Part shown: in pieces, positions 34,805 through 64,000 of the stretch
Position numbering within the stretch: position 1 is the stretch's first letter
Layout: every line of letters begins with the position of its first letter
Assembly: GCA_905178155.1 (NCBI GenBank)
Contig: CAJINV010000028.1
Coordinates: 107,235-171,234, forward strand
Direction of reading: 5' to 3'
From: Amoebophrya sp. A120
Lineage: Eukaryota; Protista; Dinoflagellata
Length of the DNA: 64,000 nucleotides
Position numbers and translations under genes: made by a program
Notes under the pieces: generated by a model
What the model saw: only the letters and a program-made list of their open reading frames with translations
Told to the model about the DNA's origin: nothing
The model's database searches: none

Positions 34805-37800
34805 TCTATCTGCGCATGCCACTTTCCGTCGTGCCGCTCGTGCTCAGCGAGACTGAAAATGATATTTCTGCTGCCAAATCATGCCAAAACCGTAGCCGAG
34901 CCTTTGGTTGACTACTCCAGCACGGCCTTGAATAAAAGACAGTCTCGCTGTAGTTTATTTGTGTGGTAATATCCTGTGCAAAAGTATCTTACTCATTACA
35001 CTCTTTCTCGTATTAAAGTTAAACGCAGTCATGCATGACAGATCTGGTATGGCTGCGATGAATGCGTACCCAAAACTTCATAAGTATACAATTTGCATCT
35101 TGTTCTGCGAAGAACAAATTGTCTATATGCAATTTGAATTTCCAGCATGCAAATATTTACGTTTATACTTTTACACTGCATACGTGATGTGAGGCGAAGC
35201 CGATATCTCTAACTTTGGTGGCACCATGAAACCGCCACCCCCTCCATTGATGACCGCGTCGAAACCTTCAGAAGTCAGATCTGAGAAGTCCAGTATCTGC
35301 GCTTCACCATCCGTACCGCCCGCGCGATTCCGATTCTGTGACAAAGAAGGATCTTTATCATTGCAGTCCTGCTCCTGCGAAGGCGGGGGTTCCGTGAATG
35401 ACACAGACGGAGCCTGCCAAGTTTCGTGGTCCCGCGATTTTTCACTAGGCGACGACTCCATCGACACATCGGAGAGGTTTTGCGTCACAATTGCCTGGTT
35501 GGTCTCCGCTCGATCTGCTTCTTTCGATTTTCGGATCAAGTGCAAGTATGTCTGGGTCGGGATGAAAGCAGAATTTTGTCATGCAGCAGTTTTCAGGTGA
35601 CACTGACGACCAAGAAGGTCTGGCGTTGCAACTGTTAGTCGAGAAGACGCTTCAATGCCTCAGCCGCTTTGTACAAACCTGCTTCTCCTTCTGAGACATA
35701 ATTATACCAAGCATTGCAGTAACTGTAGCTTTCTTCGCTGCTCATGCATGACAGGTTTTTGCTCGATCTGAAGTGTGCATTTATAAGTTCGAATCTTCCC
35801 CGGCGACAGACACATGTTTACGCTTGATATTACCTGCAGATAGTGAACCGTCCTCGCCCTTGTCCTGTGATTGCAAGCACGGTGCTCCTGCAATATTAGT
35901 AGACAAAACCCTATCTGCGTCGAGAACTACGTCCTCGGCGTCTATGGCACGGTCCGCGGCGTTGTCCACATCCTCCTGACGCAAGACCGGCCGATCGCTC
36001 TCTACTGCGCTTGCCCCGCTGCTCCGTCGAGATGGAAACGCTTCGGTAACAACAGGCACGGCTACCTCCATGTCGTCGGCTCTTGATGGCTCCTCACACA
36101 GCAGAGCCGGGACTGCAGGTAGTACATGATTTGATGTCTTGGTGTCAGTTGCAGGTCGCGACGATTGTTCCTTGCGGAGGCAAGACTCATTCGTCTCACT
36201 GCGGTTTAATTTGTGGTTTCTTGTTTCGAGCAACGGCTGGGGCAACATGCTGCCAGCACCAATCTTGACACCGGGAGATCCATGGCTTGGGCGATGATGA
36301 GGAAGCTGGGATTGCGCCGTTGGTTCGCTCGGCTGCGACGGGGGGACAGAAGTCGGCTGGATCGTGCGGGGATCGGTAACGGCGCTTGACGGACGCGACG
36401 AGACTAGGCTTGCGGTAGCTCGGGGCCCGTGGTCGGCGAGATGCTGTAGGTTACTCGTCGCGCACGAAGTTGCTTCCTCGCCGATTGCTGGGTCTTGCTG
36501 TTGCTGTCGTTCATCCTCTGACACTGCCGGCATACTAGGACACGACACTCGACAACGTATCACTTTTGCCTCCGCTTGTTCCTCCGGCGCAATAGTAGAA
36601 CCAGTCATCTTGTTCTGTGCGACGATTGAATTACAGGACCTAGACTCGGGCGTAATCGTAAACCCCGGACTAAGCTCCTCCATGAATGAAATTGCCGCCA
36701 CCTGCATTTTGCTGCGAATTCGGTCTGCGTCCTCCTTTGCAACTTGCACCTCGAGCCGCAAGGCGTCTTCCCTTGCACGCGATGCTTCCCGCAAATCTTC
36801 CAGTTCCTGTGCCTTTTTGGCCTCGAAATCGCGCACTTGCTGCACACTCTGAGCTTTAGTTTCCTCCACCGCCTGCTGCAGAGTTCGTCGAAGCTCTGCC
36901 ACTTCTCGTTCCTTCTGCGCCTTGTACTCCGCGAAAGCCTTATCTTTCACCTGCAGTTCTTTGTTCGTCTCGTTTGCGGTAGCCATTTCCCGCGCTACGA
37001 CGTGCGTTTTTTCCTTTTCCAGTATGGCAAGCCGAATCTGCAACGACTTGTTTCTTGCTGCGGCGACCGAGTCAGCTTGACGTAGGGCCTCTTGCAAGCG
37101 TTTGCATTCGTCGCACTTCCGTCTAGCGGTGAAGACCGAAGTGTGGTCTGCACTGCGCTCCGTAAAGAATACGTCACCGTCTTTGGAACTGTTGCACGTA
37201 TCTGCATTTTTCGAAGACAGGTCTCCCTCTGCAGGAGCTGCTGGTGTGGAGATACAACTGCTTGTCGAGGGTACAATCAGGGTCGAGCCCCCTCGAGTCC
37301 CTGTGATCTCTGCTGCTTGTCCTTCGATATCGGTCCTTGCAGCTCCGTTCGCCTGAACAGGGTGAACAAGTTCAACATTTAAAAAGGCTTCTTGCTCGTC
37401 AGCGCCCATTCCGTAGTTCACCGAATCTGTACTAGCGGAGCCGGCTGGACGTGGACATTTTTCAGGAGCACCTGCAGTGCATGGAGCCGTACCTCCTCGT
37501 GCGCCGGAATTATCTTTTTCACGATGACGTAGTAGCGACGTGGGTCCAACACTCGCGGTTCGATCTAAGTTTTCATCACCGCACCGATGCACGGGATCCA
37601 GTTTTTCCGGTGGAGCCCCGCCGGCGTCGAGTTTTCTTCTTTTGCTATCTCGAGTTAGATCTGCAGTTCGCTTCAGCGACACGGTCCCACGATGCTGCTG
37701 TGCGTCCTCGGCAATGCTACGATTGGCCGATGAAGCTCCATCTTCCATTTCATGCCTTTCCTCCTGTTCTTGGTCGTCGGCCTTCTTTTTCTCCGCCGGA

Positions 37801-38539
37801 TGTTGGGGACTGCGCATTAAGGAACTTCTCGATGTTGACGTTGGGTGCGTGGTATTACAATTATTGACCTGTAGTCGATAGCAGAGTCAAGTTGTATCTG
37901 AAAAAATTTGCATCGCCGTCAGCGGGCGGATACACCTCGACTTTTCCTTCGGTGTGGCCGAACTGGTCAAAGAGAACACAATAGTGCTCAAGTCGCTGAG
38001 ACGAGAACAACCAATGTCGCTATGCCACAAAATGTTTGGATTTGAAGCTGGTGTTGGCATATTGCAAAAATATATGCAAGTCAAACGCACAGAGGCCGAT
38101 ATACAAATGCTATACGCGGCGACACCATGAAAAATATTAGATGACCGGCAAATAGGTGAGTTTCTGGCCGATCAAGAGTAAGTACCTGCGTGGTCCCCGT
38201 TCTTGTTCCTCGGTCTGTGCAGAAAGTTTCTGGCATCCTCTCCCCCGCGCCGCCTACATCTTGTCCCGAACTCGTTCTGGCATTTTTGCAGATATCTGCA
38301 CTAGGAGAAACCGTCCTCACCACGGATGCAGCTCTGCCTTCCGTCACCTTGTCAAGCTGCTGCACTGGTCCCGTACTTGTCATGGCCTGCCGCAGGTGGC
38401 GTTGCCCCACCTTAGGTCGATCTTCGCGGTCCTGTTTTGAAAGGTGTGAACATTGCGGCATCGGTTCATGTTGAAACGATACGAGGGAAAAGTGTAGTAC
38501 TACCTGACAGACCCGCCAACGCGAGCGGTTGATGCACAT
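34805..38539 (-). CDS. Hypothetical protein with central coiled-coil (multi-exon, ends approximate)
   Basis: The 678-aa ORF 35781..37817 has an E/K/Q/A-rich heptad segment and links to 35171..35545 and beyond across two elements. ORF 38081..38539 is a probable upstream exon. Confidence 0.6.
34970..35182. mobile_element. Introner-like intron, family B, inverted relative to most family-B copies
   Basis: GGTAA/CGTGA repeats. TATCCTGTGCAAAAGTATC is at the left end. Frame continues PHIT|TQINYSE. Confidence 0.8.
35528..35787. mobile_element. Degenerate family A element (boundaries approximate)
   Basis: GATCAAGTGCAAGTATGTCTGGGTCGG at 35534. TTCGA repeats at 35523 and 35788 give an in-frame join. 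Confidence 0.6.
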
Positions 38540-43230: not shown

Positions 43231-46200
43231 CAGCTGTCGTGGCGGGACGCGCCTCCGTTTTCCTCTCCTCTTGATGTAGCCGAGGAGATGATTTGAACGC
43301 CCCGCACTTTGGAACGGATAGCGCGCCTTGCGCATCTGTTTGCAGCTGAATCCCAGACGACGGGGGGCGGCCCCAAAAGCAAAAGGGAACGGCTCTGCGC
43401 GACCCTCTTCTCCTGCACGCGTAGCATACGGGAGCCGGCTTTTTTCTTTCATTCTATCCTGGAGAACGAAGCCGTCACCGAGCGGGAACGTTTTGCTACA
43501 TGCACGATCTTGTGCCGCGTCGTGGCTCCCGCGTTGCTGCAGGAACAAGACCCGGCGCTGAGAAAAAGTTCCTCCGAGCTGATCACGGCAACCTTGGCGG
43601 AATGGGTAGCCTCTTCCCCGTTTTTGCTCGAGCGGCGTAGCACAGCTTGCAGGTGGAACAAGTGTACCACTTTGCATCGCCGGGCAAATGTAAATGATGC
43701 CGCAACGTGCTGACTTGCTGCTCGCTGGTAAATGCGCAATGCGCAATACAACCGCGACTGCGCGAGATGTCCGACGCGACGGCCGCGCATTTTGCAACAG
43801 GAAAAGTTCGCGCGTCATTCTGCGTCAAATTCCAAAAAATAAAGAATAGCTGCAGACGAAAGAATTATAATATAACATTAACATCCGAATTATTTTTGAG
43901 AATATTTCTCAAACTTGCTGTTGCTAGCACTCCGGGAAATTGTAAAATCTGACAAAAAAAAAAACCAAGCTTAGCTCTTCTCTCTTGCTTGGGGACTGTA
44001 CCTCCCGGAGTTACAACACGACATCCACCCAATTATTTCTTGCACACGGACACGACGCCTGCGCCGGTAGTCATACACAGTGGTCATGTCGCCTATCTAA
44101 CATCTCGGTAGAAGTGATGAAAACAAAAACATCGTGCTGAAATGAGTCACCGGTTTGCTCAACACGTGAAAATAGGACTCTCGGTCTCTCTTCCTGACCG
44201 AACTTCCCAAGACAGCGGAGCGAAGTCATATGTCTAGACCAACACCGCACTCAAACTCAGTATTGCGGATGAGAAAAGACAGCCATTGGGTCGGTCATTC
44301 ACTCTCAGCTGCCGTCCTCTTCCACAAAAAAAGCCGCGAGGAAAAAAACATTTCAGAAAATCTGAAAAAAAATTAGTAGCAGGGACAAAACCGCGGGAGA
44401 ACAATTCCTGGGTCAGCTAAGCGCGTTCGTTGCGATTGTGGGCGACACTCCCGCATGGTACCTCCACAAATTTACAATCATGTTGAAGTTGATGCTGGTA
44501 GTCCAGAGTACCCACTGTCTTTTCACCTGGTTAGCTGCAGGGAATTTTGTGCCACTTTCATCTACTTCTTGTGCAAGACGTGTCCTTCCAATCGCTGTGT
44601 TGAATTGATTACAATGCTCGCATATCTGCGCCGCAGTTCTCGGCCTTACAAACTCGTCATAGCAGCACATCCCGCCACCCTCGTCGCCAGTCCAGCGACA
44701 AAGCAACCGAGGTACCGGCAAGCGGTCCTCAGGGTTAAGGAAGTGCGGCGAAAGCTTTCAATTGACTACGGACGCCAGGATGCGATCTGGATGCAAGTTT
44801 CGCCCTTATCGTAGCGAAGTGACACGACTTGATATTTGCCGCGGTCCAGAGCGGCGTCGACTTTCTAATATCTTTGTCTCTTCAAACTCAACGGGACACG
44901 CGAGCATCTTCAGCATGCCGAGTAACAATCAAGCAAGCGAGTGCGGCGTGCCGAGGGAAAGATGATCTTGGTCCTCGTCGTGGCTGACGAATAGAATACC
45001 GACAAGTGTTCCACGGCTCCGTTCGGCCCGAGCCTCCGGAGGTGGAGGTGCACGGCAATTACATATTACGAAGTGGAAGAAGACATTTGCTGGCACACAA
45101 ACAAAAAAACAGCGATACCAAACAATGAATTTTCTACATGCAGGTGATGTGGCTCCAACACGAGGAAAAAATGTAGAAGTAGATGCGCAAACTTGCCTGG
45201 AAAATAAAGGCGTAACACTTTATCTGCATTCTCCGGCACAACCCCCGACTTGCTATATGTGTAAGCGCACTACGTTCGCAAGAACATCCAATCGCATGGC
45301 CCGGAGACCTTGAGCACCTCCCTGGCCTCGTCCTTAGGCTGGAGCTGGACACATCGTCAAAATCGGGTCCATGATAGAAAGACATGAGTGTTCACTTCAG
45401 ACTGCGCGAAACATGAGAATGAGCCCGCAATAATGCGAGGAGTTTTAGGACGTTTCATCGTGGTATTGATATCGGATCTATCAACGAAGATGCGATCATT
45501 CTTTTTGAATATGCGCACCAAATGCTACATCAAGATGAAGGTCACCAACAAGATCTTCTAACAAAATCGAATATACTTGAAAAGCGCTAGACAAAATGGT
45601 GGGCAGATTTGCGTTCTTACGTTTCCGCATCACCACAAACAAACAAGCATGCTCAATTGCTGGTAGTATACTATGCATCGAATGAAGGCGTCGTGTCGAA
45701 TCCGTATATTCAGTGTGCACCATGCTTCCCCTCGGCTGTACTCATATTCATGTTGTCGACATTCAAATTTTTTCCTGTATCTCCAACAAGTGTCACGAGT
45801 GGCGCCCGTGTAGTGTGTGAATTCCGGAGCCAGATATTTATTTCAATTTTCATGTATGCAACAGGCAGGGACTTGTGTATCAGCATCCTACTTTTTTCCT
45901 TCTTCTTGTAGTTGATTAGTCTTGTCATATTTTCCTGAAGCGGCCGTGGCTGTGACAAGTATTTCGTTCAGAAGAATGGAATTCCAAATATTTATCAGGG
46001 AAAGGAAAGCGCAAGTCTATTCTAGAAAAGTAGTAACAATAAGTAATCATAAATCTGTACACGAAACATCATATCCACGACTCGCACTGCAACGTAAATC
46101 CAAATTCGGTTCTGGTTCTTTCCGTGAATAAAACGTCATCACGTCGGCCGGGGGAGGTGGGAAAAGCCGTCAAGCTTGCTTGTATCCCTTGAAAAAGTGA

Positions 46201-46336
46201 CCCTGGGTGGTGATTCTACTTCATCTTTAATGCAATTTGTAAAACCGAAACTGACACTGGGCTTGGTGCGTACTTTCACTTTGTGAGTACCGGCGCCACG
46301 ACATATTAGTCTATGGCGCCCCTTTTCCTTTCATAT

Positions 46337-49300
46337 TCATGCCTGCGCAAATCTATATCTTTGATCGTAGTTGGTGTTGTGGTTAGAGTTACTGCTACTG
46401 CAACTGTCGTTGCCACTGCGACTGCAAGAAGCATCGTCGTGTTCGTGGCGTACTAGCATCGAAAAACAAAATTGCGCATTCCTACTAGAAGTGGATGAAC
46501 ATGAGTAGGCTCGAAGATCAACATGCACAACGCGGCCACTTTTCATGGGGTAATCTAGGCACTCGACAAGAGCCGGAATAAATCTGAGCTCTAGTTGCGC
46601 TAGCTGTGGACATAACTCCACCCGGGACAGTATGAAAGCAAAACAAACACCTCCACCTGGCTCACAGTCACACTCATCTCAAAGACGAGGTTCTACATAA
46701 AATCACGAGGCGCAGCATGTGCGCAACGACATCCGCAGAGGCAATCTGTACACTTCGTGCCTTTGTTGTAGTTCCGACGCGGAGCGCAAGCAAAAACTTC
46801 TAACCTAATCTCCGCTTGACATGCCATTTCTTTGGTTACTGGCACATGAAAATGATGAAAATTGAAAAGTATCCTAGGAGGTCGTTTTGGCCGATTGCAA
46901 AATCGTAAACAAATACAGCTCTCGGAGGAAGGGTTCCAGATGTGTGCCGATCGTGGCGCTCAAAATTTCGTCAACCATGCCTCGTCGCCCACGACTCCTG
47001 CCGAGCTTCTCATGTTGAAAATTTTTCGCGTTTCCTGTGCTCCTACCTCTTTTTCAAAATGATATCTCTTCGAGCGACCCGCCTGGTGTCGCAGGAACGA
47101 AGACGAGCTGGCGTTTTTACTGCCTGGATCACATGCATACTGAGATGGAGTCTTGGGAAAACACGAATTTCTGCTTGGTAGCACAGCTCCTGCCGCAGTC
47201 GGAAGTCGAGCTGCACACGAACCGCAATCCGGCGGAGCATCATTGCCAATAGGACAGGAGGCAAGATGAGATTGTCCTTCTTTTGCTCCTGCTGCGGCAA
47301 AGCAGGTGGAAGAGTCCCACTGTCGAACGGGCTGAAACTCTGCTTCTCTGTGGCTCGTGCCCTACTCATGAGCCGGGGGAACATACGGGAAAAAATTGCT
47401 TCCACTCTCTCTTGCATGCGGTCCCGAACATGTGTTTTCTGCCGGCTTGCTGCTGCGGCCCCGGGCGACGCTTGCAGGAATGCAGTCCCTGATTGTGCTC
47501 GCAGACTCCCCTGTCCTTCATGATGCTTCGCATCCGTGCTGCCGGCATCTGGTTCTGGGTCTTGTGTAGAACCAGCTCCGACCATTTCCTCTGCCGCATC
47601 CAAAACACGCACCGAGGCGCGCAACTCGAGGGAGGTATGCAGGCGAAACAGATCGGCAACCACAAGTCCTTTCATCTGGTTTTCCAGCCAAACCACTGAA
47701 GCAGAAGCACTGGCACTGTTGGTGGTCGAAGGAAGTTGTGAAACTGGTGCATCCACCACCTCCGTTCCTGGGCTGAGCGTGGATTCTTGCTGTGCTGCTG
47801 GCCTTTCTTCTGCACTCGCACCCAAGTTGTTCGCCACCGCAACGAACCGCTCCTTCTCGTGCTCGGTACGGCTGCGGCGATTTGAAAAAGGGTGATTGTC
47901 ATTGGCATTGTCGTTGTAGTCTTCTTCACCATATAATTCTGTAGGTCCTTCAGAAATCGCAAGTACCACATCGCCCTTCAACCGATCCCACAGTTCTTTA
48001 AGGCTCGCAGATTCCAGTTCCCGAGGAAAAAACCTTCCGTATCGCCGGCGCAGTACGATGCAGAAACGCTGCAGATGACTTATGGCCTCCTGTTCGAACG
48101 TGGCGCGGGAAGCGGAATCACTATCTTCATTACCGTGACTCGAAAACTCAACTGCGAACCCGAATTCGGCAAGTGACAGGTCTGGCTGGAGTGTTTCCAT
48201 CGCACGTCGGTTTGCATCCCGCTCAGCAGAGCTCACATGATCGAAATCAGAATATTTCAATCGGCACAAAACCTGTAGCCGCTCTGCCAGAGGGAGCTCC
48301 CGTAGGTAAACAGCTGTGCTGCATGACACTTCTTTCCCTGCGACAAGAACCGCGGCGTCTTCATCACGATTGCTGGTGGACGGCTTTGCTTCACCAGCGT
48401 CAGCGACGTCCATCACCACCGCTGTTCTGCGAACACCAAGTTGTATCTCTTGCACGGCCCATATGTCTAGGTTCTTTTTAGTGGCGCCAGACCCGCTCGT
48501 CTTCCCTGGCGCACTGGCGTCACCAAAGTCTAGGTTCTCACTGCGCTGCCTGCACGTAACAAGATGCTCGTCCAGCACTTCTCTCGTCGAAGACAGCGGA
48601 ATTTTTTGCGAAACGCCGCATTTCTCAATTAAATCCGTCAGAACGGTGCGGTTACCGAGAATTTCGCCACGGTAGGTGAAGGGAGCAAATCCTGTCTCTG
48701 CCATTTTGCCTCGGCCGGCTTGGCTTGAAGAGCCTGTTGTTCCGAGAAGTGCGGGCACTTGGCTGCGAATTTCGTTTCTTCGTTGCGCCAGCTTCGGTGT
48801 GTCCAAAAACACTTTCCCATCGATTGCGTGCTCTCGGATGTAGTTTTCCAGAAGTTCCCACGCCACACACAAGGAGCGACCAGAACTGCGGACACCGGGT
48901 TGGGAGTCGCGATGACTGTGTAGTTGCAATTTCGATGCTTGACTTTGTGTCCTTTCCCACTCACATGCAAAGCCACAGCAAAAGAACCCGGTCTTATGGA
49001 GCACCGATTCCGCGAACCAGGATGTGCTGAGAAGCTGGTTGCTTGTGAGACGCGGGACGTCTGTTAGGGGGACCGGGGCTGCTAAGGACGCAGCCGTAGC
49101 TGTCACGACGGTACGCGCGACGGGGATGATTCCGTTGTGCTGGCCGTGCCTAGTACAGAAAACTGCATCGGTGGAGTGCTGCTTTGCAATAGGAGAATTG
49201 ACCGTCCCTTCCGATGTGTTCGTCGTTGCAGCAATGCCGTTCTTGAGGTAGGAGAGCAAGAAGTCATTCTGAATATCAGCCAAAGCAGTAATTAGAAGCT

Positions 49301-52300
49301 TCAAGTACACATTCTCATCTTCCTCTCCATAACAACTGTAGATCAGGGGTGTGGTCAAACACATCTCGAATTTTGGCAACCGTTGACACTCGTGTCGTTC
49401 TAAGATGCCCCAGCGGCAAATCGCTTGATTCCAGACGGATGCAAACTCAGTAAACAGTTGTAGGGCACCGTCATCACACTCACACCTCACCGTGGTCCCG
49501 TCCCCGTTTTTTAGATCACGGGAGCGTGCCGTCCGATTATGATTAGGGGATGAAGACGGACAGAACTTGCACAGGAACATTTCCACCGAAAGATCGATGC
49601 GTGCTTCGTCCCGGGAAACACGGCCCTCCGCCTTTTCTTGCACTAGCTGCATCCATGCGACCACCTTTGGGATTGCGGCCACGAGCCCCATTGCCGCCAG
49701 TCGCCGATCGCCCTCGAGTTCCTGGCTTAGAAAATATCGCAACAACGGAAATTCGTGGTCGTGACTCCAAACACAAGTCGTTGACGAGGAAACCACGCCG
49801 TGAGGAGCGACCGCCGTACGATTGGCGTTGTCCATTTTCGTTGCGAGCTCGTAATCGGCGAAGGCGGTCTTAACGCACACCAGGAGATCCACGTCGGAAA
49901 ATCGGAGCGTTTTTCGCAGAAATCGGTGTTCCAACGTCTCCCTGGCTCTTGTGGCAGCGGCTTTCGCAACCGTGAGAGAATCTTCTACGCTAGATTGTTC
50001 AGCGGCTGTGCTGTCAGAGGATTCGATGGAAACCGTCAGCGGCGCATGCTGCTGTGCCTCGTTGCTTCCCAGCTCGCGGCTAGCAGCTGGTACCGATGGT
50101 GCCCAAATGCACTCATAAACTTCGGGGTTGCGTGTGTAGTCCCGGCGAGGCATATTGTAATCACGCCTCGCGTCACCGTGCACGCACCGATATTCCGGGT
50201 AGTCAAGCTGTTTAAACGGGTACCGCCTCGCGATTTCAAAGACAGGTCCGGAAGCAGACCTGAAACGAGTATTAGCTGCATCAGATGAGAACAATACGCG
50301 TTCGGCCAGAAGGTCGTTAATGCCGAAGCTGTGGTAATGGCAAAAGGAGTTCGACAAGGTAAACACCACCTTCCCGGTCTCCGGCCTCACTATTCTCCTC
50401 GCCAACGCGAAGAAGGCGCGCATCAGATCTCGGTGCGTCAGAGACCGGTCGTCGGGATCTGCAAACGGCATGTTGAACAGCAAAATGTCGACGTAACCCT
50501 CCGCGCCATCAACGGCAGGAGCTATGTGAGGATCTCCTGGACGATGGACTACACCCCGGAACGTTTGCATCACGTCCGCACAGTACTGCTTGATTGTCGA
50601 CACACAGTAGTCGGGCTCCTCGACGATGTCAATATCGCATTCCACGTGAAAGAGCGCGGTTTCGGGGTTGAAGGCTCGCTCGTAGATTCCACTGTAGCGG
50701 CCTAGCAGCTCGGCGCGCGTCTCCTTCGACGTCGCCACGTAGCATTGCTTCGAAACTCCATGTTTTCGACAATACGCCTGCGCAAAAGTAAAATTTCCAG
50801 CACCAATCTCGACGATAAGCGGTTGGTGTCTTCTTGCTCGATCGTCTCGGGATGTACTACTTGCGCCCCGCGCTCCATCCACTGTTTGCGGGCGCACTAC
50901 TTCGTCGATTTCCAACCGCAGCAAGTCGTTTTCGCCGTGACTGAGCTCCGCTAAAAATGAACGATGTTCTGCCGAAGCGGGGACTACAAAATCCTCCGCA
51001 AAGTTTCTTTCCCAAACAACGAGTTCCTCGAAATTGCGAATGCTCAAAGTAGTACGGTGAGCTCCGCTTTCGTCCTCGACCGCAGGATCGATGCTGCCCG
51101 TAGAAGTAGGCGACTCCTTGCCTCGTAGTTCAGGAGTACCTCCTGTTTGCTCGAGAAGTTTGCAGATGAGGCACATGAAAAATGAACACAACAGCTCCGG
51201 CCTCATGTCAAAGTAATGGAGCAAGGCCTGCCAATCAGCCTTGACATGGTGGACGTCAAACTTGGCCGCGTGCCCCAGGAGGTGCAAAACCAGAAACGCC
51301 TGTGGCGAAAGAGCTCTGGCACCACAAAGGGGATACTGGTGGTATGCGTGCTCCCAATAGCCGGCCCTGGTATCATTTTGGGTACTTCCAGTGCTCGATC
51401 CTGCCTCACGCGGGGACGGGCTCGTCCAGCTTTGTCGATTCGTCGCTTCCGTAGAAGTGGCCGCTGGGGTAAGCAACGTCCAGTTGTTAGGCCCTAGGAA
51501 GTTGCATTTCGGACACCTTTCATGGTCAAGAAAAAGGCCGTGCTGACCTCCCCCGATCGGCACACAGGACGTGTCCGTTGTTACCGTCTCTCCGCAGTTG
51601 GAACACAGGAGTGTTCGAAAGCTGTTCTTCATTCCAATTTTCTGCAAAGCATCACAATCGAGCTGCTCTGGCATTCCTGGCAGATAGACGCAGTTCCTCT
51701 CGTCCCAAAACTGCTTCGCGTTGTACTCCTTAATTGGTGCAAGCCGTGGAATCAAACACACCGCAGAGGCCTGTGCAAGCGAAATAAAAACGTAATCACA
51801 ACGTGGTTCTTTCTCCTCCTGCACGCGCAGACTAATACTAGAGGTAGAAGGGAGCAGCACACGGACCCTCCAATCCATGAAGCACACTGCGCAAATTTAT
51901 CGGCTAAAATGTGTCAGTTCAACAACCTGCAAAAAAACACAAAGATTGGAAAAATCCGAAAGGTCACAATACCAAATATTCTTCTATACGAGACTGAGCA
52001 GTTTCACCGGTGACATTTCATCAGTCCACGACGATATATCAATGACAAATTGGTATGCACATCTTCTGCATCTGCATCAAACATTGACATCTTTTGTCAC
52101 CGTCGCCGACTCTGGCCAGAATAATGAAAATAAGTTTCTTCCGCTTGCATAGAGCGCACAAGAGCATCGTCCACATACACAAGAGGTCCCCGTTTGCGGG
52201 AGCAACTGCGACTGCACCGTTTGCAGCAATTCTGTCCGCGGGTGGTGTTGCGGATTCACCAAATGTGCGGTCCAGCTGGTCGGCGACTTCGGCGGGAAGA

Positions 52301-55300
52301 TCCGACTGCTGCAGTGCCTTCAACCACCGATTCCCTTGGTGATCGGGCTGAGTGGCACTGAAGGTCGCGGCCACTCCGGACGCTACATCGAACAAGAGTC
52401 CCCCACCGCTCGTCCGACGCGATGTGCCGCATCCTGTTCCTGGCACCCTCCCGCCCCCGATGACGGGAACCTCGCGCTCGGACAGAGGTTGCGCTACAGC
52501 AGCTTTTTCCGCAACGCGGCGCAAAAGTGCTTGGGTCGCCGCTGCGCAAACTGCAAAACGCCGCGTCACGCTATCTGAGTCGTCCGCGCTGTAGCACAGC
52601 ACGCTCTGAGTCACCTCGAGCTCCTGGCGTTGCATGTGCAGTAACTCTGCAGTTCTGGACCTGCCGGAGCCGGGCGTGCCCTCCGCCATCAACTTCTCGT
52701 CAAGCCGGTCTTCGAAGTGACGCACCAATTCAACTGCCTGTGGCAGAAACTGGTGCAGAATGATGGAATTCTGACGGCCTCGATGGGTTGGGGGCACATT
52801 TTGCGTTTCGCCCGTCAACGAAACAGGGCCCCCAGTTGCAGTGCCCGCTCCGGCGAAGCAGTATTGAGAGGTTGGTTCCTGCTGCGAGTCGGGCTCGTCT
52901 GGGTGCTTCGCTGACAAAATTCGTCCCAGACCGGCAAAGTTATCGAGCACGAAATCAAGAGTCAAGACCTTCGATAGATACACTGCACATGGCCGATCGT
53001 GGCAGAGCGTCAGAAGCATCCGCTGCAGATAATAGTCCGTGTGTCGCCGGCCCTCGCCGAAAGAACATCCGGCCTCATCCGAGCTGCCTTCTCGCTGTGA
53101 CTGCGCAGAGGTGCTTCTGCTCCACACGGAGTGCTGACGTTGACCTCCTGCCTCGAGCAAAAACTCGTCCTTTCGCCGGTGATTTAACACTTCTGCAAGT
53201 ATACGCACCCACAAAGATCGCAAGAAAGTCAAACGGACACTCGGAGACCACCTTGGGGATGCGGACTCTAGTATTCCCGCCGTATCGTTTGGCGCCGCAC
53301 GCGCAGATGCTACTTCCGCTCCTGGCCCTGTCTCGAAATCAGAATCCAGTTTATCTTGGAGTCGTTGGAGTTCCGTGCACAACCTCTCTACTGCAAGAAG
53401 GCTTTCCTTGGTGCACCAACGCGAGGTTGGTGCTTGGTTACATCTTTTGCCATCGACCTTCAGTGCTGCTTTCGCGATCAGATCCAACACGACAGGCAAC
53501 AAGATCATGCTTGGGTGTTGTTGAAAATGAAATTTGGTGGAAGCTCCTCCTGCCGCGGATTCTACGGGCTCCATCCCAATCAACTGCACCCCGCCCACAG
53601 CCTGGTTTGCGTTCAAAGTAGTTTCTAATCGCTCGAACAAGGACTCCAGGTACGTCACAAGCAGCGACGCCCGTTGCCCCACACTTGATGCGGCTGTCGT
53701 ATCTGTGGTGCTGTTCCGTGCGGCTCGCAGCACTAGGGCATCCGGGTCATGCAGCAGCTCCTCCAAGTCATCCACTGATATGCGTGGCCGCAGGACGCAC
53801 GCAGTGATGCTTACAAGTCTTTGATGCTCCAATTCCGCTTGCAGTGCAGCTCTACTGCTTGCGCCACAGTCCTCTGCGTCCTCTCTTGGGGCTTCCCCGC
53901 AGAACTCGACCGCCGCGAGTTCCTGCAGGATCGTAGTAACCAATTCGCTGCTCGTCCTCCTCGTGAGCACCTTTTCGTCCTGCTTCTGAAAACGAGACTC
54001 AACGCAAGAAGCTGCTTTTGTAACGCGAGCACTTGTCGGAAATTCTGCGTCCGAATACTCGGCGTAAGCACAGCTTTGCCTATGATCTGCAGTATCGTAC
54101 CTATGTAATGTTTCCAACGCAAGATGTAGCATCAACCAAGATTTCTCGCGGTGCAGCAGGGTCTTGCCGGATCCAATCAAAGTCTCCTCGATAAAGTGTG
54201 GCAAGGTCGAATAAGTCGGTGCTGGATACCCGCGCAGCAATGCAATCCGGAGGACATCAAGGCCTAGAAAGTGACACTTGTTGCTGTCGCTTTTCGTCAC
54301 GATCTCTGCGGGCGAAGTGGATGCACAGGACAGGCTTTTGAGAGTGTAATCTGCGGCGCCGTGGTTCCCCATCGCAATCTGCTGAGCGAAGCCGAGGACG
54401 CGTGTCGCGCAAGCGGTCCACACTGTTCTGCGCGCTTTTTCGCAAGAAAGGTCGGTCGTCTTTTTCCTTTCGGGGCTGCCAACATGTCCAGGCTGCTGGG
54501 TGTCACCCTCACTGCATTTCCGAGTGAAGAGGCTGCTGTCATTGTCGTCAAACTTGATCATCTCCCAGACACACGCCTCCAGAAAGCCACCGGCTGCTAG
54601 ATCCTGGAATTTTTCGTTCAACAAAAGCCCCGCTGGCATCATTGACAGGAGCTGCATACACTGCAAGACGCGCTCCTTCTCAGTGGCCACGAACAGGTGC
54701 ACGTGGTATAGCCGAGAACTGGCGCGACGCCTGGGAGTCCATTTCCCCCCGATTTTCAGCCATTCGAGGTACTGTCCAAGCACAAGCTGCTGCTGCTTTT
54801 CCGAGGTTAGATGACAATTGCCCGCGTATTTTTCCGTAAATACACCTCCGACAAAGCCCACACGTAACACATCGAGCTCGTAGTCAGAGATTGCTTGCTT
54901 CATCTTTCCAAACTTCTTAGAACACAGCTGCACTGGATTTTTCTCAACATTCGGCGGAGTGCCTTCTTCGCCGTCACTGCCGCTGCCGAGAGCAGATGCG
55001 TCGTGGACGTCGGCAATACCTGAGCTATCTTCCACGAACTCTTTGATCCAGAGCCAGATCTCCATGCCGACGTACCGGGGAGCAACAATCTGATCAAATT
55101 CTCTTTCACCCGGCAGTTGCTTCTGCTGTTGCAGGCCGTCGCCCTGCAACGCTTGGCTGATCCGGTCGGCAATGAATTTTACGAATGGTGTGCTGATCAA
55201 CCGCACTGGTGCGGTCCAGCCTTCCTTGTTGTTCGTTTTTGCACTTCTTGCAACACGAGTTTCGCAGGAAAAGAACTCCGGCGGCAAGCGAAGGTCGTAA

Positions 55301-58300
55301 CATTCGGGGCCGCTTGGGTCGGCAACTTGCTGGAGCGGCATGTCGTCTTCTTCGTTCCGGGTGCCGAGTACGAAGCGTGCTGCGTCAAACCACTGGAGGC
55401 GTCGCATCGTCTTCCCTGTGCCGCTCTGCTCGATCGCGAGCAAGGAACCGAGCGCGCAGTGCTTTTCCATAAAAAACAACCACTTTGCGAGGCTCCGGTG
55501 CACCAGTCCAGAAAAGAATTCGCTGACTGCCTCACTGATTTGGGAAAATTGCCGGAGGTAGCGATCGTCATTCTGAAAAATTTCTTCAAACCAGCGCATC
55601 TTTTTCGAGAAGTCAGTATTTGCTGCACCGGAGTGAGATGAATCCGGCTCGCCCCCGTAATCGAGCTCGTAAAACTCACCAATCACGGGAAAGCACGCTT
55701 GTTCGGCAATGAACTTGACCAGCTCTTTGTCCTGCAAGATGAAGTGGTGTAACTCGTTTTGGTGCTGGAGTGGCGCTGCACCAGCTGGGTACCGCAAGTG
55801 CTCGAAACACGTCGCGAGCTTGCGCTCTAGGAGGCTTTGGAAGAAATCGTGGGTGGAGGACAGAACATATCGCACAGACCACTGCTCGCGCAGCGCTCGC
55901 ACGAATGGAAATCTCTCTGCGTAGACCGCAGGAGCTTTCGTGCCTGTGCCTCTCCTGGGCGGTAATGCAGCTTCCGCTGGCAGTGTTTTCATCACACATT
56001 GTGCTGACGACGAGATCGCTTCGCCCGGATCGCACGTCGTCACGGATCCGGCGGTTTTCCTCTCGGAAGATGCATCCACCAGCACGTCGTGCACGTCTTC
56101 AACCAGGCTCAGCTGCCATCCAGAAAGGAAGTTAAAGCCGCCAGGGAGTGTGTCTTGCCGGTCTCTTTTTGATAGGTGGACGAATAGGACGCAACACCGT
56201 GCGCGTCCCGCATGCTCCTTTACCAGTGTGAGATGTGGCGAGTCGGCGTGGCACTGTAGAACCAGAAAGCGTTCGCTTCTTGCTGAAGATGGAGCAGCTT
56301 TGACATCAGACGGAGCGGCACCACATAGTTTGTTATGATCCGTAACAATTCGCTCCAGATCGCGCTCTCTGCCAAAGGCGTCGGCGTTGTGCACCTCAGC
56401 CAAAGAAACCAGCTGCTTGTTGCGCAAGCGCAAGGACTTTGTGGTCTTCAGACAGCCCTCCTTGGAGAAGGTAAAGACTACAACTTTGGTACTCAAGTTC
56501 CTGCTATCCTGATCCTGCTCGATTGTATGCTCCATCGAGGACCTCTTATCAAGAGTTGAGGAATTTTCGCCATTCAAACGGCTTATCTCGGTCGGCATTA
56601 GGACTGCTCGTTCGGCACCGAAGAATCGCTCGAAGTACTGATTGCACCAAGCAAGCGTATTCTCATCATCCCATTGTGCGGCCTCACTGTAGCGTTCGGT
56701 GCGGAGCACCCCATCGCAGATTGCAAGCGGTAGGAGCAGCGCCCAGGCGAGTTCCAGTATCTTTCCCATCCTCATGGAGTGCCACTCCTGCTTCTGTGAA
56801 TCCAAGTCTAGTTGCTCCGCCCGCTGTGGCTTACCCCAGACGGTGTCCTGGGGCAAATGCAAACCATTCTGCGACCACCCAAAAGTCGGCAAATCGGCAC
56901 CAGCCAAAGAGCTATCTCGGTTTGTCGCTGGTCCACTAGTAGTGTCTGTTCTGCGCAACACAGCGTCGACGTGCTTGTCCAGAAAAAGCACGAGAGAGGC
57001 AAGCACGCACTCGTCAGCGCCCAAGCACACCTGCCAATTGGAGCTAGGGGCGTCGGTGCGTGGTCTTGCTCCACTGGAGGCTCCAGCGTCTCGTATCTGC
57101 CGCCGAAGTTGCTTTGCCAGATCTTGCAAGTCCTCGCGGCCCCGCAAGTAGTCCTCTACAGAGTGCACAAAGTGTTTCTCTGCCCGATTCAGAAACGCCA
57201 CGTCCACTCTTGTTGGATCGTCCAAGAGGATGACGCAGCGAAATTTTGGATGCACCACAACCTTCTTGTGAATGTCCGCGAGGGCAATGCGGCAACGAAG
57301 CTCGGCGTCACTCGATCATCACGCTGAGAGCACTGTGGTTTGCTTCAAAGCTCAAGGTCAAGGTACGATACAACGAAATGCAAGACATAAATCATAAACA
57401 TGCAACACAAGATAAGGCAAAGAGAAATCTTAAATGTCTGCTCATCAAAGGCGGAGCTTGTCAGCTCTACTGTGGCTAAACTTTTCATTCCGACGTGGCT
57501 CCGAAGGATGCGAGGACGACATCAAAGCCATGCGTACGCTCGGATTCAAAAGCCACTTGGTTGACAGTCACCACTCACGAAGACGGAAGAATAAGAAAAG
57601 CGTAGCTGCATGCAAAATAATTATCGTTAGGGGACCCTTGTTCGTAACCTGCAGATGGCTAGTAAAGATGCACGGCCACAGTTTGCTCATGTTGATAACG
57701 TGCGTTCATAATTCATGTTCAAGACATGAAACAGAGAGCCGTAGATCACATCGAGGTCGCGGAGCACAGCGATTGTGCCGCTTTCCATGCAGTGCATGAA
57801 CCGGTTTAGGACATCGGACGCGTAGCTTGCCGATTCTGAAACGGCGTCTTTCGGGAAAACGGAGCCCACAAACAATTCGCAGGGCTGACCGTGGCTCTCG
57901 CTGGCGAGGCGAACCAAGTCCAGTGCAATCTCGTAGTGTGCGGTCGACTTGCACACTAACAGCAGATGGCGCGCTTGATGCCCGGCTACAAAGTTCTTCG
58001 CGAGCATCTCCGGCAGGGTAAAGGATCGCATCTGGTTTTCGGCTTTATGGAACTCCGGATCGTTTTGCGGCAACTGCAGACACTGCAAAAACTCACTCTT
58101 CTCTCCGTTAGACGTCAGCCCTCCGAAGTTGCGCTGGGCGGCTTCGAAGAGAAACTGCAAGTAATTCGCCGGTTGGAGCTGGAGTGCGTGCTGTGATGGT
58201 CCAGTGGTGCGCTGAACGTGGGTGCGCGCAATGCTGCAGAAGGACTTTACGAAAAAGTAAAAGTCACGCAGCCCATGGAAATCAGGCATCTTCTGCTGCA

Positions 58301-61300
58301 AGTAATATCCCCGGTACGAGTTCACCATTATGTCCCGAACCTTTTCTTTGCAATACTGGGCCTTCGCAGTCTGTCCGACATTCTGCGGAGCCTCGAAAGC
58401 TTTTGTTCTGTCAAGTAGCTCGGCCGCGATATTTCTCAAGTCTGCGGGCTCCGGCATCGGCAGATTGATGGTTAGCCCCCGGCTCATCTTTGCGGCGTCC
58501 AGCTGGTCGTTCGAGAGCGCCACAAAAGCAAACTCAGGCTTTCGCAGCTTTGACTGCGCCGGCTCGAGCCAACTGTGCAGTACCTTCAGTGGGTTGTTTG
58601 GGCTCTGCTCCGCAAGCCCGATCTCGTCGAAGTGAAATAAAACGATGGTATCCTTGGGACTGAAATTCAAGGTGCTCTGGGACCGTGTGACCGCCGGCGC
58701 ACTGGCTGACGCACCGGGATGCTGCCTCGATACGCCCATAGTACTTGGCGCTGCTCCTCCAGCTGGAACTGTGTTCCCGGACCCGGACGCGGCTTCCGAA
58801 CCTCCCTGGCTCTTGCCATCATACGATTGTTGCATTTTCTGTGCTTGTTGAAAGCGGCGTTCTATGCCAGCACTGTTTGAGACGTCGCTCCCCTGGTAAG
58901 ACACCACATACAATTTGGGCATGTACTGCCAAAAGGGCATGTAAGACTCCTTGCCCTTCAGATTGCTGTCAATGATATTCAGCGCCAGGGACTTCGACAT
59001 TCCAGGCTTGCCTACGAGATACACTGGGTCGCGGTTCAACAGCCCAATCACGCTGACATAAATGTTCTCTGCGAGGGTGTTCGTCACGACCACGTCTGGC
59101 GGCAGCCGCATTAACTCGACCATTTTCTCGTGCTGCTCGCGATGCCAGTAGGACAAAAGGAAATCTTCGTATTCGCAGTGCCTCTTGACCTCCTCCCAGC
59201 TTCGAAATTTGCCCTCGTATTTTTGTTTTGCATAGAAAAACTCGTAAAGTACTGGCGATCGGGCTGTTTTTTCTCGCGTGCGCATCGTGTCTTGGAGTAA
59301 TCTTCGATACTCACGCCGCTGCTTTGCGTCCGGAATGCGAGAGTGGTAACACATCATGAGCCCGAAAAGCGTGGCGCTTAGTAACAAAATGTTTGGCATC
59401 AGCATGTAAGGCAGGTCAAACTCGCCTTTGTAGCTCTGCTTGCCAACATTCTCGTTGTGTAGCGTTACCAGAATCGTCTCTCGTGTCTTGTAGAAATGCA
59501 CCAAAAAATAGATCAGTTCCACGCATCGCTTGATGTCCCGCAGGCTCACCAGATAGTTGGGAAAGCGCTCAGTAATGAATTTTTGCGAGACCCAGAGCAG
59601 CCGGGTCAGGTCGTCCGCGAAGGTCGTGCGCTCTTCACTGCTCTGTCCGAACAAAGACTTAAACCTGGTACAGAAGAGCGACGCGCTGTTGTAGCCACTC
59701 TTATCTTTCCACCAAAACTTCATTTGCCCGACGTTGTCCAAGCGCTGCGCAAGCCCTTTGCACATAATTCGCACGTACTGCTCTTCCTCTGCGGGGCCAA
59801 GTTTGCCGAAATCGTACATGAACAGCATCAATTTCTCTGGCAGCGGATGCACCGAATACACTAAATTTGCGAACTTGCGGCGCGCGTTAGACGTCGACCC
59901 GGCGATGGCTTTTTCGTCAGCACTGATTTGATCACACGTGCCGATGCCGCCCTCGCTAGCAAGCACCTTTCGTTGAACGGAAGTAGAAAGTGATGTTTTT
60001 TTCTCTTCTCGCAACCGGTACGGATTTGCAGCGGCGAGAAAAACCAAGTTCTCCGCGAGCGGATATCCCCGGAGACGGCGATCCACCATGACGTCTGCGA
60101 TAACGCCTTGGTGCGCACAGGTATTGATCTCGTCGAGAAACACCCACACCTCTTGCGCATGCGACGCCTCATTTCTGGCCAGGTTGTCTGCTCTTTCAAC
60201 AAAGTCCAGGATGTCCTTTGCGCCAATACCCGCGTGGACGGGCAAGTCGAGAAACTGGACGCCCAAAATTTTCGCAAGCGTCTGCAACAGCGACGTCTTT
60301 CCGCATCCTGTCTCTCCTACGAGAATTACCGGCATCCGCGCTTCCGCACGCAGGGCCACACGAATCATCTTGAGAAAATTGTCCGGCGTTACCACATAGT
60401 TTGCTGCGATCTCTTCCAAAGCTTCCTCCTTCAACGGCACCGCAGCATTACCCACCACCTTCCACACCTCACGAATCAGCTCGCGTGTCGACATGTCACG
60501 GTACTTTGGTAACGGTTTTTTTTGTGTTTGGAGGAGACGCAGACAGCTGGAAAAGTGCGCATCCTTCCTAGCCGCAGTCTCGTCTCGCGCAAGAGGAGAA
60601 ACCGTCTGCCTGCCATTGCGATGAAACACCAGCATCGGAGCTAATTTGGACCAAGGGATCACATCCATGCCGCATTGCGAAACATGGTTATGAAGATTCT
60701 CCAATGTGGTGTGATTCTTGATGTGGAACTGCATCTGTTTTCGCAGGACAATCAGGTCCACTGACAGCTCACAAAAATCCAACACGAACCGTATGAGGCC
60801 TCGCACCACCTCGCTTCGCAGCCGTCTCGCGGATTCTTCTATCGCCTGCATTTGCGATGCGACGCTGTCGACTCGAAAGAAAACACTGTAATGAAAAGCC
60901 ACGAATTGCGCCGCAAGGATCGCCAATGCGCTCTGCAGTTGGGCAAAGCTCTGAATCTTCGGTGCAGGAAGGTTCGCCTCCTGAGCCACGACAGAGGCGG
61001 TTGCGCGGTCTTGAGAAAAGATGGCGTCGGCGCTGGTGGTGTCCTCGGATAGAGATTTCACGCCCAAATATTTCCTGAACAAGGCACGAATTTTGGAAGT
61101 CGGAATGCAGGTTGTGGCCATTTCGTTCAGCTTGCGAGCTGCAGTTCTCGGTGTCGCCGCGGCTGTTGTAGTAGGTGAAAATAGATCCAGGTCTGTCGTG
61201 TCGATCTTCGGGCGGCAGGGATCTGCGTCGGACCTCACATCGAGAGCGGCAAGCGTTTTTGCCACAATTTGGTCAGCGCTTTGCGGATCCTGTGAAGGCA

Positions 61301-64000
61301 CGAACCGGTCGAAGGAGAAATCCACATGAAGTGCCGCAGTCGGTTGTTGCGATGAAAACTAATCCCGCTCGCACACAATTGCATTTTTGTATAGAGGAAT
61401 CTAGTACGCTGACGATCCCGACGGCTGTTCCTATGTTGATGTATGATACCTATCAAATATACCAAGAAATTATAGTTGCTGTTGCGCAGCGCGAGGCGAG
61501 TTTTCATCACTATATGGGTGGGAAAAGCCGAAAAAACGGTATACAGCGACCTAGTGCAGCTGAGCCCGTGTCCGGCAGCGTCGCAGTGCTGGACAAATTG
61601 GCCACTTCGATGAAGAAAACCCTGATGTCTCGCAGATGCAGCAGTGTGTTTGTCGACTGCAAACTCTTCAGCAGCACTAGTTGAAATAGCATGTCTGAAA
61701 GTACGCGCGCATTCGAGTCCTCAAAGTGCGCAGCAGTTTCGTCAAAGAAGACGTCGTTGACCTGCAAGTGCAGACAGCAAGGAATCCCGGAGTTGTCTTT
61801 CCGCAGCACTCTGCCCTGCTGAGCGCAGAGACTGCGGTGTAGTTCTGCGATCACCGTTTCGAGCGCGTCCTTACCTGACATAGGCCCTCCAATCCGCACG
61901 TCGATCGGGTACAAGCCGCGGCGTCGAGCTTCCTTCTGGATGAACTCGGTCTTTCCGCAGCCCGGAAACGCAGAAGTGACTACGTGCACTTCGGTATCGC
62001 AAATGCGTGTCAAAGCGGAGGAGAGCTCCTGTAGCGGCAGTAGTGGGCCAACGGCAGGAGCACCGTGCAAAAGAAGTTCCTCTGGTGCTCGTCCTCTTCC
62101 CGTCGCATAGTGCTGTCGCATCGTATCCACTTCGAGAAGAGGCGTAAACTTGTTTAGCAAGTAGCACGTGGTGACGCCGCGGTGCGGAACCCCTCTTGGT
62201 CCCCCTGTGGCTAAGGACGCTCTGGTAGTGCTCGGTCTCATTCGAGATTGCAGGAGGCGTCGTCCCCCGAAATACTTGTGGGGCCAGACCGCACTGCTAT
62301 CTCCAGCCGCGCCAGTACTTGTGTTTCCGCGATGCTCCGCTACTGCGACCACGAGCAAATACGTTTCTGCGGAGGCTCCGGTGGCGGCAACGGCGTCATG
62401 TGCGTTGCCAGACGGCGCAAATTCGGCCACAAAGCGGATCTGCAGATCATAGTCGAGTTGCTCAGCGTTCACAAGACAAAACAGACTTTTGTCGGGACTC
62501 TCGCTTTGATACCTTGCCAGAAAGGCCTGAACCTGTTCCCAAGTCGTTGTCTGACTACAAAACAGCACTTGGTGCGGGTCAGGGCGAATTTGAAGGGCAG
62601 CGTGGCTCCAGATAATTGCCGGAAGAATGTCCTGAGGCCGTCGTAAACGAGAAAGATGCGGGCCTCAGTTACTTGCGACCAAGTACAGCGACAACTCTTT
62701 CTTTTCAGAAAGTCATGATCTTCGTATCTAGATGTACTTACATTCAGGAAAGCGGAGATCATAGTGATTTCGAGCAGGCTCAAGTTATCGTATATAAAGG
62801 CACTGTGATTAAACGTATCTGTATGTACATACTTCCCTTCATCTTCTTGTTCTTCCTAACCACACAGCTAGCACACTTTTTTTTTGATAAAGATGTGGTC
62901 GCTAGAAAAAATGCGTAGCGTCGCCGTGAGCTATGTCTTTATAAAGTTTTTTTTGGGCGGTTGACAGCATGATCCTGCGCGCACTCCTATGCGAACATTC
63001 GCTTTCTTTCGACGTCTGGCTATTATAGTATAGCAACATGTAATCTAAATCTGAGAGGCCCAGCAACTTAAACTTTGATAGCGATCGCGCGACACACATT
63101 AGCAAAGGAGGAACCTCCCGCCGAACTGCAAGCTTTCCGTCCGTTTGCACTTGTGATTCGACTTGGCTGCCACCATAGTACAGATCGCGTTTGCGATGCT
63201 CACGCGTTGCCTCCACATAGCCTTGCCACACTTTCAGAGTCGTTGCGTCTACTAGAGCTAAATCCAGCCCATGCTCGGAGGGAAGACGCAGGCTTTTTGC
63301 AGCACCAGACCCCTGGACGCGCATTGAAACCGTGGTGGCAACCGCAGAGTAGAAAGACGATACACAACGCCCCAGGGCGTCAAGCCAGGCTTCTGCCGTG
63401 GTAGCCTGCTGGAGACGTCCCACACCGCCGTCGTGTACTGCACTCGCCCAACCAGTTTCCAATGCTGACTCCGAGAAGTTGGTCTGGAAAAGGAACCGCA
63501 ACATATCGGACACTTCTTGCCCAACGTGATCGTTCGTCGTGAAAAAGTTTTCGACGACCCAAAGTTGCTGGCCAACGACGCGCGTAAGGATTCCATGCTT
63601 GCGCTGCGCGGCAGCAAGTGCGACCTGCCACTCCTCAGCATCCTTTGCAACCGCGGCAAGAAAATTTCCCAGGTCCCCGGAGGAGCTGAAGCCGACTTCG
63701 CGTTCGACCTTGTTTTTTTCCTTTTGAAGCAGCAGTGCGCTACTACTAGTACTCGTGCTGTCTTTGCTGCTCCGGACGCGATATTGGAAGTGTCCAGCGC
63801 GGCGGATCGCTGCCAGTAGGCCCCGTAGCTCGAACACCTGGTCCGATTGCTCGTGGAACACGCGAAGCAGCTCGACAAGTGTCTCTCGTTCCCGAACCGC
63901 TTCTTCCTTGCGCTTACTGTCCTGAGCCAGGTTCTGCCGACTGGAGGGCGTGCTGCAAGAAGCTTTTCTTACGTCAGAACGGCTGTCCAGCATCCTTGCT
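46337..64000 (-). CDS. RNF213: RNF213 (mysterin)-like giant dynein-type AAA+ ATPase, 5' end outside the window
   Basis: Collinear RNF213-type motifs: VLFCS..TTWEQV..FL, VVTSAFPGCGKT, YVVTPDNFLKM, GETGCGKT, VFLDEINT, AAANPYR, LVYSVHPLP, VSLRDIKR, LAENI, GKPGMSKS, SYQGS, FDEIGLAE.SPNNPLKVLH, LDAAKMSRG, FHGLRDFY, VHPKFRC, AFLNRAEKH, YLPGMPE, FPLLRYFL. ORFs 62902..63993, 61510..62568, 57687..61325, 52039..57258, 47043..51887, 46337..46621. Confidence 0.92.
46631..47139. other. Possible degenerate TAT..ATA non-canonical intron in the RNF213-like gene
   Basis: TATG at both ends. Removing element + 5 joins RLHLS|RVELCPQ in frame. TIR and repeat are weak. Confidence 0.45.
50100..50825 (-). other. 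BMT5/DUF2431-like class I SAM-dependent methyltransferase domain within the RNF213-like ORF
   Basis: LIVEIGAGNFTFA, YVATSKETRAELLGRY, DILLFNMPF, LMRAFFALARRIV, GKVVFTL, YPFKQLDYPEY. Confidence 0.8.
57317..57697. other. Non-canonical intron with subterminal inverted repeat in the RNF213-like gene
   Basis: GAGCACTGTGG / CCACAGTTTGCTC inverted repeat and right end ..TTGATA. Removing element + 5 joins LNMNYER|SSDAELRCRIAL..VHPKFRC in frame. Confidence 0.6.

Follow-up and report, generated by a model that had tools for sequence, protein, structure and literature searches.

RNF213 is a ubiquitin ligase of animal immunity and the moyamoya disease gene. The window analysed here, a 64 kb stretch of DNA from Amoebophrya sp. 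A120, raises the question of whether a protein of this type can hold a second enzyme and, if so, what that enzyme does there: a sequence-only reading had proposed that one uninterrupted frame encodes an RNF213-like ATPase whose C-terminal module is interrupted by a BMT5/DUF2431-type rRNA methyltransferase domain. A second enzyme-type domain fixed inside the ligase module across dinoflagellates, in hosts that range from coral symbionts to a bloom-killing parasite, means that the RNF213 scaffold can carry another chemistry.

Gene structure and transcript support

All motifs quoted in that reading lie, in the order proposed, in a single frame on the reverse strand (47043..51896, 1617 codons without interruption in the ORF list of the 64-kb window). 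The open frame is real, but it corresponds to an internal exon region (the true exon being 47181-51767) within a larger spliced gene, and four further long frames lie 5' of it on the same strand and reach the window edge. The exon structure was taken from contigs of four runs (one sample, one study, with the RNA status of the runs guessed by the tool). The contigs behave as cDNA, since four stretches are skipped in them: 46179-46553, 46627-46908 and 47003-47180 in 4/4 runs, and 51768-52152 in 3/4. Joining the exons leaves a single frame of 3318 codons open between 57315 and a stop codon at 46141. Only for the last five exons does RNA show the joints, and the 5' end at 57315 is that of an ORF, not an RNA-supported border.

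Each gap between the long frames (51768-52152, 57318-57696, 61351-61508 and 62669-62908) ends in a pair of inverted repeats; the first gap is the RNA-confirmed intron, and the repeats at the other three resemble its repeats. From the homologues spanning the junctions above 57315, and from these repeats at the three upstream gaps, we infer that these exons join into the same gene, and by the same route AAA core and E3 module of the window would form one polypeptide. Non-canonical introns with terminal repeats have been reported for Amoebophrya (PMC7789003). The three RNA-confirmed 3' introns are without GT-AG ends as cut.

The segment encoding the putative methyltransferase is exonic. Spliced contigs of the one sample bridge its start (50754-51562, 50648-50869) and its end (49910-50349, 49832-50346), and no joint skipping the domain occurs among the listed contigs of the four runs; location of the domain within an intron was rejected, as was its identification as a chance neighbouring gene.

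Table 1. Features of the RNF213-like gene in the window, in the direction of transcription
Feature	Position	Strand	Basis or remark
Upstream exon, open at window edge	62902..64000	-	long frame; gene start beyond window
Upstream exon, additional Walker A motif at 61974	61510..62664	-	borders inferred
AAA-core exon	57700..61350	-	Walker A GETGCGKT 60317, Walker B FLDEIN 60140, GKPGMSKS 59012, FDEIG 58631; borders inferred
Exon, end of AAA ring and front of E3 module	52153..57315	-	5' border inferred; RING none detected
Non-canonical intron, 385 nt, terminal inverted repeats	51768..52152	-	joint in 3/4 runs; repeats 51771-51788/52135-52152
Exon with RZ-like finger, both flanks and methyltransferase	47181..51767	-	spliced-contig joints 47002/47181 and 51767/52153
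Degenerate RZ-like zinc finger, CxxC ... C ... CxxC	51504..51605	-	aligns with true RZ fingers of relatives
RNF213-type E3-module segment before insertion	50901..51311	-	alignments with relatives
Flank motifs 5' of domain	LSPQAFLVLHLLGHAA 51311-51264, HVKADWQAL 51248-51222, WERNF 51014-51000	-	
BMT5-like (PF10354) class I SAM-dependent methyltransferase domain, in-frame insertion	50097..50822	-	Pfam match 50807-50184, fold; bounds from alignments
Motif I, EIGAGNFTF	50784..50810	-	both glycines and last Phe common to stand-alone members; Glu specific to fused group
DIDIV	50622..50636	-	second Asp aligns with Asp invariant in 13/13 domains
FNMPF, counterpart of family NFP/QFP motif	50463..50477	-	Pro invariant; Phe to Met in both Amoebophrya
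YPEYRCVHGDARRDY loop	50157..50201	-	P..Y..V.GD.R invariant in 7/7 fused, absent in that form from 6 stand-alone domains
RNF213-type E3-module segment after insertion	49257..49928	-	alignments with relatives
Flank motifs 3' of domain	FPLLRYFL 49751-49728, FASVWN 49445-49428, LADIQNDFL 49283-49257	-	
Three 3' exons	46909-47002, 46554-46626, 45367-46178	-	stop codon 46141-46139, 3' untranslated part after

The inserted domain and its RNF213-like host

The host gene is RNF213-like, as had been proposed, but its ATPase lies in the upstream exons (57690-62664) and not in the frame first described. There, frame 57687-61358 matches the AAA core of RNF213 (E 3.8e-49) and also midasin (E 2e-24); its Walker motifs are intact and align with those of RNF213, the Walker A lysine with human K2426. 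Such a tandem dynein-like AAA core with aligned Walker motifs is common to the window gene and vertebrate RNF213/mysterin (PDB 6TAX, 7OIK, 8S24, 9G08, 9JW1), and the order of AAA ring, E3 module, RZ-type finger and helical segments would be common to them as well, the last corresponding approximately to human 4570-4910 through a fungal relative. The dinoflagellate proteins differ from RNF213 in that the methyltransferase replaces a short loop and in that no RING family was detected by Pfam scans of the window exons or the Effrenium model (a RING pattern scan, run with no positive control, adds little).

In-frame insertion into the C-terminal module is borne out by the flanks, which align with relatives that match RNF213. 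The link is transitive: a direct search with the window flanks gave no match to RNF213, and it is dinoflagellate and fungal relatives that match it (E 2e-5 and 3e-7). In the alignment the insertion replaces a short loop between the end of an acidic helix and an RL(F/W)R motif; mapped through the fungal relative, this loop occupies chain positions 4760-4777 of 9G08. With an offset of 40 between that chain and human numbering, inferred from C4516 and R4810, the site would correspond to approximately 4720-4737 of human RNF213, between RZ finger and CTD. The loop that tolerates a whole domain thus lies about 75-90 residues before the disease residue R4810. Among the proteins collected, 128 match both flanks, comprising 113 without the domain, mostly unnamed or animal with one fungal, and 15 with it, which are not independent (7 Durusdinium, 3 Symbiodinium; most from a search requiring the domain). 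The flanks are 49-57 residues apart in the domain-free proteins (81 in one) and 256-326 in the fused ones, and none of the 15 fused models with both flanks has the insertion at another site. RING-less RNF213-like proteins of animals and fungi (coral, lancelet, mollusc, Entrophospora) align over both flanks and are without the domain, with 49-81 intervening residues in 113/113.

Identity of the insert as a BMT5/DUF2431 domain is confirmed by profile and by fold. Residues 364-571 of the ORF match Pfam PF10354 (BMT5-like, formerly DUF2431) over profile positions 3-166 of 168, with 44 bits against a cut-off of 24.7 and E values of 3.9e-11 for the ORF and 1e-12 for the domain alone; all 30 matches of an ESM Atlas feature search are BMT5-like (best 0.93). 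The predicted structure of the window domain superposes on methyltransferases of class I (best Z 11.5, rmsd 3.4, 148 aligned), and the better model of the Polarella domain does so more closely (Z 14.1, rmsd 2.8, 151 aligned; Rossmann fold); fold matches range over RNA, protein and small-molecule methyltransferases, with no single family standing out. A 997-residue model built from 11 sequences (mean pLDDT 45.9, pTM 0.32) has fair confidence only in the domain and part of the following helices, and is too poor elsewhere to place the domain relative to the RZ finger; the absence of RNF213 among its listed fold matches is uninformative. Direct sequence search of solved structures with the window domain or ORF gave no significant match, an alignment-profile search gave no match, NCBIfam and PADLOC gave weak generic matches only, and an ESM Atlas search with one further protein gave no usable match.

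Seven positions are invariant across 7 fused and 6 stand-alone bacterial domains (13/13), among them both glycines of motif I, its Phe, an Asp following the third strand and, in the NFP motif, the Pro. We take these to be SAM-site residues from class I motifs, and on that footing the window domain appears to retain the SAM-site residues common to stand-alone members. Particular to the fused group are a Glu in motif I, which reads E-[IL]-G-x-G instead of the V/I-G-[DE]-G of stand-alone PF10354 members, a His before the fourth helix, and the P..Y..V.GD.R loop, a candidate substrate loop. The window domain thus resembles yeast Bmt5 (Yil096c) and its family over 164 of 168 profile positions and in its class I fold, and is unlike Bmt5 in being embedded in a giant AAA+ protein and in having the extra invariant loop, residue comparison being with the bacterial members only.

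Between the two Amoebophrya proteins the domain is 57% identical and the flanks 39-42%; between Amoebophrya and core dinoflagellates the values are 26% and 23-30%, and among core dinoflagellates 46% and 41-52%. Over 7 species, Breviolum not among them, 21 domain positions do not vary. Divergence is greatest in the Amoebophrya domains (44-45 bits to PF10354 vs 87-104 in core dinoflagellates), in which NFP is changed to NMP/HMP. Taken together, these comparisons indicate that the domain is under constraint at least equal to that on its flanks, which is not proof of catalysis. The stand-alone bacterial family is patchy, with 6/301 genomes above the cut-off. Three of these six proteins carry a CxxC...H..H zinc-finger-like tail (L001 4935-5780, L004 and L007), and the ORF adjoining one of the six genes (L001 3858-4772, reverse strand) presumably resembles a cytolysin of HlyE/ClyA type.

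The ligase side is better preserved in core dinoflagellates than in Amoebophrya. In core dinoflagellates the RZ finger matches PF20173 with E 1e-12 to 1e-15, and its cysteine aligns with human C4516; in a Pfam scan neither Amoebophrya gave a PF20173 match, and the candidate nucleophile of the window finger is offset by two columns. The His zinc ligand of the RNF213 finger is replaced by Cys in core dinoflagellates, and the finger is degenerate in Amoebophrya. A general-base His has been described for RNF213 (PMC12075652, PMC11549300); at its column no His is found in 8/8 fused sequences shown, and some core dinoflagellates have one a few residues past it. A CTD-type profile (last 330 residues of animal and fungal relatives) matches 5/6 core dinoflagellate proteins and neither Amoebophrya protein. 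RNF213 is reported to depend for its E3 activity on the binding of ATP, on the RZ cysteine and on the CTD (10.1101/2021.05.10.443411, PMC12075652). From these alignments ubiquitin transfer seems plausible for the family and doubtful for the window copy. Where RNF213 has a Cys/His pair and core dinoflagellates have CxC, the window finger has CxxC, and its candidate nucleophile is followed by an insertion. In several coral-type relatives of RNF213 the zinc cysteines of the RZ finger are present and the catalytic cysteine is missing.

Distribution and descent of the fusion

The same insertion after the RZ finger was found in a second Amoebophrya and in Effrenium, Polarella, Durusdinium, Symbiodinium, Breviolum and Cladocopium. 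A search of 1.84 billion representative sequences returned 5 matches: two pieces of the window gene, the 2539-residue protein of Amoebophrya AT5.2 with the same insertion, a 113-residue unnamed fragment spanning the upstream junction, and a repetitive bacterial-type protein rejected as a chance match. An AAA-core search gave 568 long proteins, and PF10354 is listed in 1 of the best 120, an Effrenium voratum model with the order AAA, RZ finger, domain; Polarella glacialis also carries the fused domain. When long relatives were sought with the window's own region, none was found among 5055 candidates, a null that reflects the divergence of that region, since relatives exist. A profile of the fused region found 4 matches among 7992 candidates (1331-3800 residues), 4/4 with RZ and PF10354, from Durusdinium, Symbiodinium, Breviolum (a model without part of the domain) and Cladocopium. 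AAA core, RZ finger and domain lie within one gene model in Effrenium, Polarella, Durusdinium and Symbiodinium. A C5 DNA methylase was rejected as a part of the architecture, the PF00145 piece of the Cladocopium model (residues 542-649, possibly a mobile-element exon) falling outside the aligned region.

By the AAA matches the fusion, which had been called unusual, is rare, but it is not one genome's oddity: seven dinoflagellate genera have it in their public models, where it has passed without remark under names such as RZ-type domain-containing protein, rnf213a or HIPP41. The suggestion that no example is described has held so far, in that no description of an RNF213-methyltransferase fusion was among the papers listed by the literature searches (subscription papers and supplements lie outside that search, and RZ-protein alignments there may show it). 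The architecture is real, expressed and lineage-wide, and apparently undescribed.

Some public models would fit a fusion that is an assembly or gene-model artefact, or a domain that is a tolerated passenger. A public 953-residue protein, assigned to Amoebophrya sp. A120 by its source, is 100% identical to the window over the matched part, and its gene model, corrected here, begins downstream of the methyltransferase domain; the AT5.2 and Cladocopium genes are each split into two public models; and among the contigs listed none covers 50350-50436 or anything above 55345. Set against this are the single open frame, the contigs bridging both domain ends, the seven genera with the same site, and constraint equal to that on the flanks, so that artefact or passenger is very improbable and already largely refuted.

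A quick tree of 27 AAA cores places all nine dinoflagellate rows on one side of a branch with SH-aLRT 100, with Amoebophrya apart, although long branches meet at the dinoflagellate branch and warrant a long-branch warning. One dinoflagellate row is not labelled fused, its model stopping before the RZ finger, and for two the fused label is taken over from a neighbouring or clustered model. The tree is compatible with vertical descent, and a single insertion before the split of Syndiniales and core dinoflagellates would explain the common site. Pattern scans for relatives found none in viral contigs, none in metagenome contigs, and none, then one, in successive scans of prokaryote genomes; phages and plasmids gave no match to a partial domain, viral fold matches were generic, and none of these results points to a donor of the domain.

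Candidate functions of the fused protein

Our preferred reading, which we hold tentatively and at a little short of an even chance, is that the domain is an active SAM-dependent enzyme, likely acting on RNA, in an ATP-gated RNF213-type scaffold that probably serves surveillance or defence. A BMT5-family domain sits in a loop of the E3 module of an RNF213-like giant AAA+ protein and likely still binds SAM. Nucleotide binding in the AAA ring would license the E3 module, as in RNF213, and the RZ cysteine would pass on ubiquitin, a step for which core dinoflagellates are better candidates than Amoebophrya. An RNA target, either held by the ATP-gated scaffold or recruiting it, would receive from the domain an N-methyl mark, m3U by family analogy, whether that target is invader RNA or the RNA of a ribonucleoprotein being marked. 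On this reading the protein is likely to act as a methyl writer, probably on RNA, in addition to ubiquitin transfer or in place of it; RNA as the likely substrate is taken from the Pfam family. An RNA-handling module and an RZ-type ligase also occur in one chain in ZNFX1, likened to the fused protein through its RZ finger only, which combines an SF1 helicase with a Miz domain and RZ-type ubiquitin ligase finger (10.1101/2025.10.14.682297) where the dinoflagellates have AAA ring and methyltransferase.

An alternative is housekeeping in ribosome assembly or quality control: the AAA ring would remodel the particle and the domain would do the large-subunit rRNA job of Bmt5. In yeast, Bmt5 is a nucleolar protein that makes m3U on 25S rRNA (PMC3950682); midasin, a ribosome factor, is a further match of the AAA core, and plain vertical descent is compatible with the AAA tree. 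The match to RNF213 is far stronger than that to midasin (4e-49 vs 2e-24), however, a good RZ finger is kept in core dinoflagellates, and motif I and the C-terminal loop are unlike those of stand-alone members; we consider a housekeeping role unlikely, and a surveillance or defence role is favoured by analogy with RNF213.

The domain could instead be a sensor, adaptor or decoy, steering or switching the ligase with no need to methylate; it would bind SAM, RNA or a protein with which an invader targets the RNA methyltransferases of its host. Its position is suggestive, within the E3 module and roughly 50-65 residues past the loop that forms the second E2 contact of RNF213 (mouse 4605-4618; 10.1101/2021.05.10.443411); the motif changes in the Amoebophrya domains point the same way, and a binding module, too, would be expected to keep its SAM pocket. 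Against it, the domain stays at one site and has its extra loop invariant in 7/7 compared. Decoys, as known from the integrated domains of plant NLRs, are expected to vary or swap between lineages. The apparent vertical descent of the AAA cores likewise runs against the expectation of a fast arms race, a point that also counts against the defence role in our preferred reading, and is no less in keeping with a stable function than with an arms-race decoy. The sensor or decoy reading is doubtful yet a serious contender, and the effector or decoy role in defence first proposed for the fusion, drawn by analogy from animal RNF213, is not established.

A bolder version of the active-enzyme reading, quite unlikely, would make the protein a dinoflagellate surveillance machine with two chemistries, in which an ATP-gated RZ ligase is combined with a methyltransferase that N3-methylates uridines of captured viral or ribosomal RNA and so blocks base pairing; in Amoebophrya, where the finger would have decayed and the methyltransferase is the best-kept part, the scaffold would have turned from ubiquitin writer to RNA methyl writer. 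The methyltransferase domain is a small expressible unit for work on its substrate, and the fused protein may belong to the cell-autonomous defence of dinoflagellates, of which little is known.

Elsewhere in the window, a reverse-strand frame at 29944-31167 encodes a TatD-related DNase (PF01026, E 2.6e-22), and three long frames of 545-701 codons (10192-11829, 18117-20105 and 35781-37886, reverse strand) have no Pfam match.
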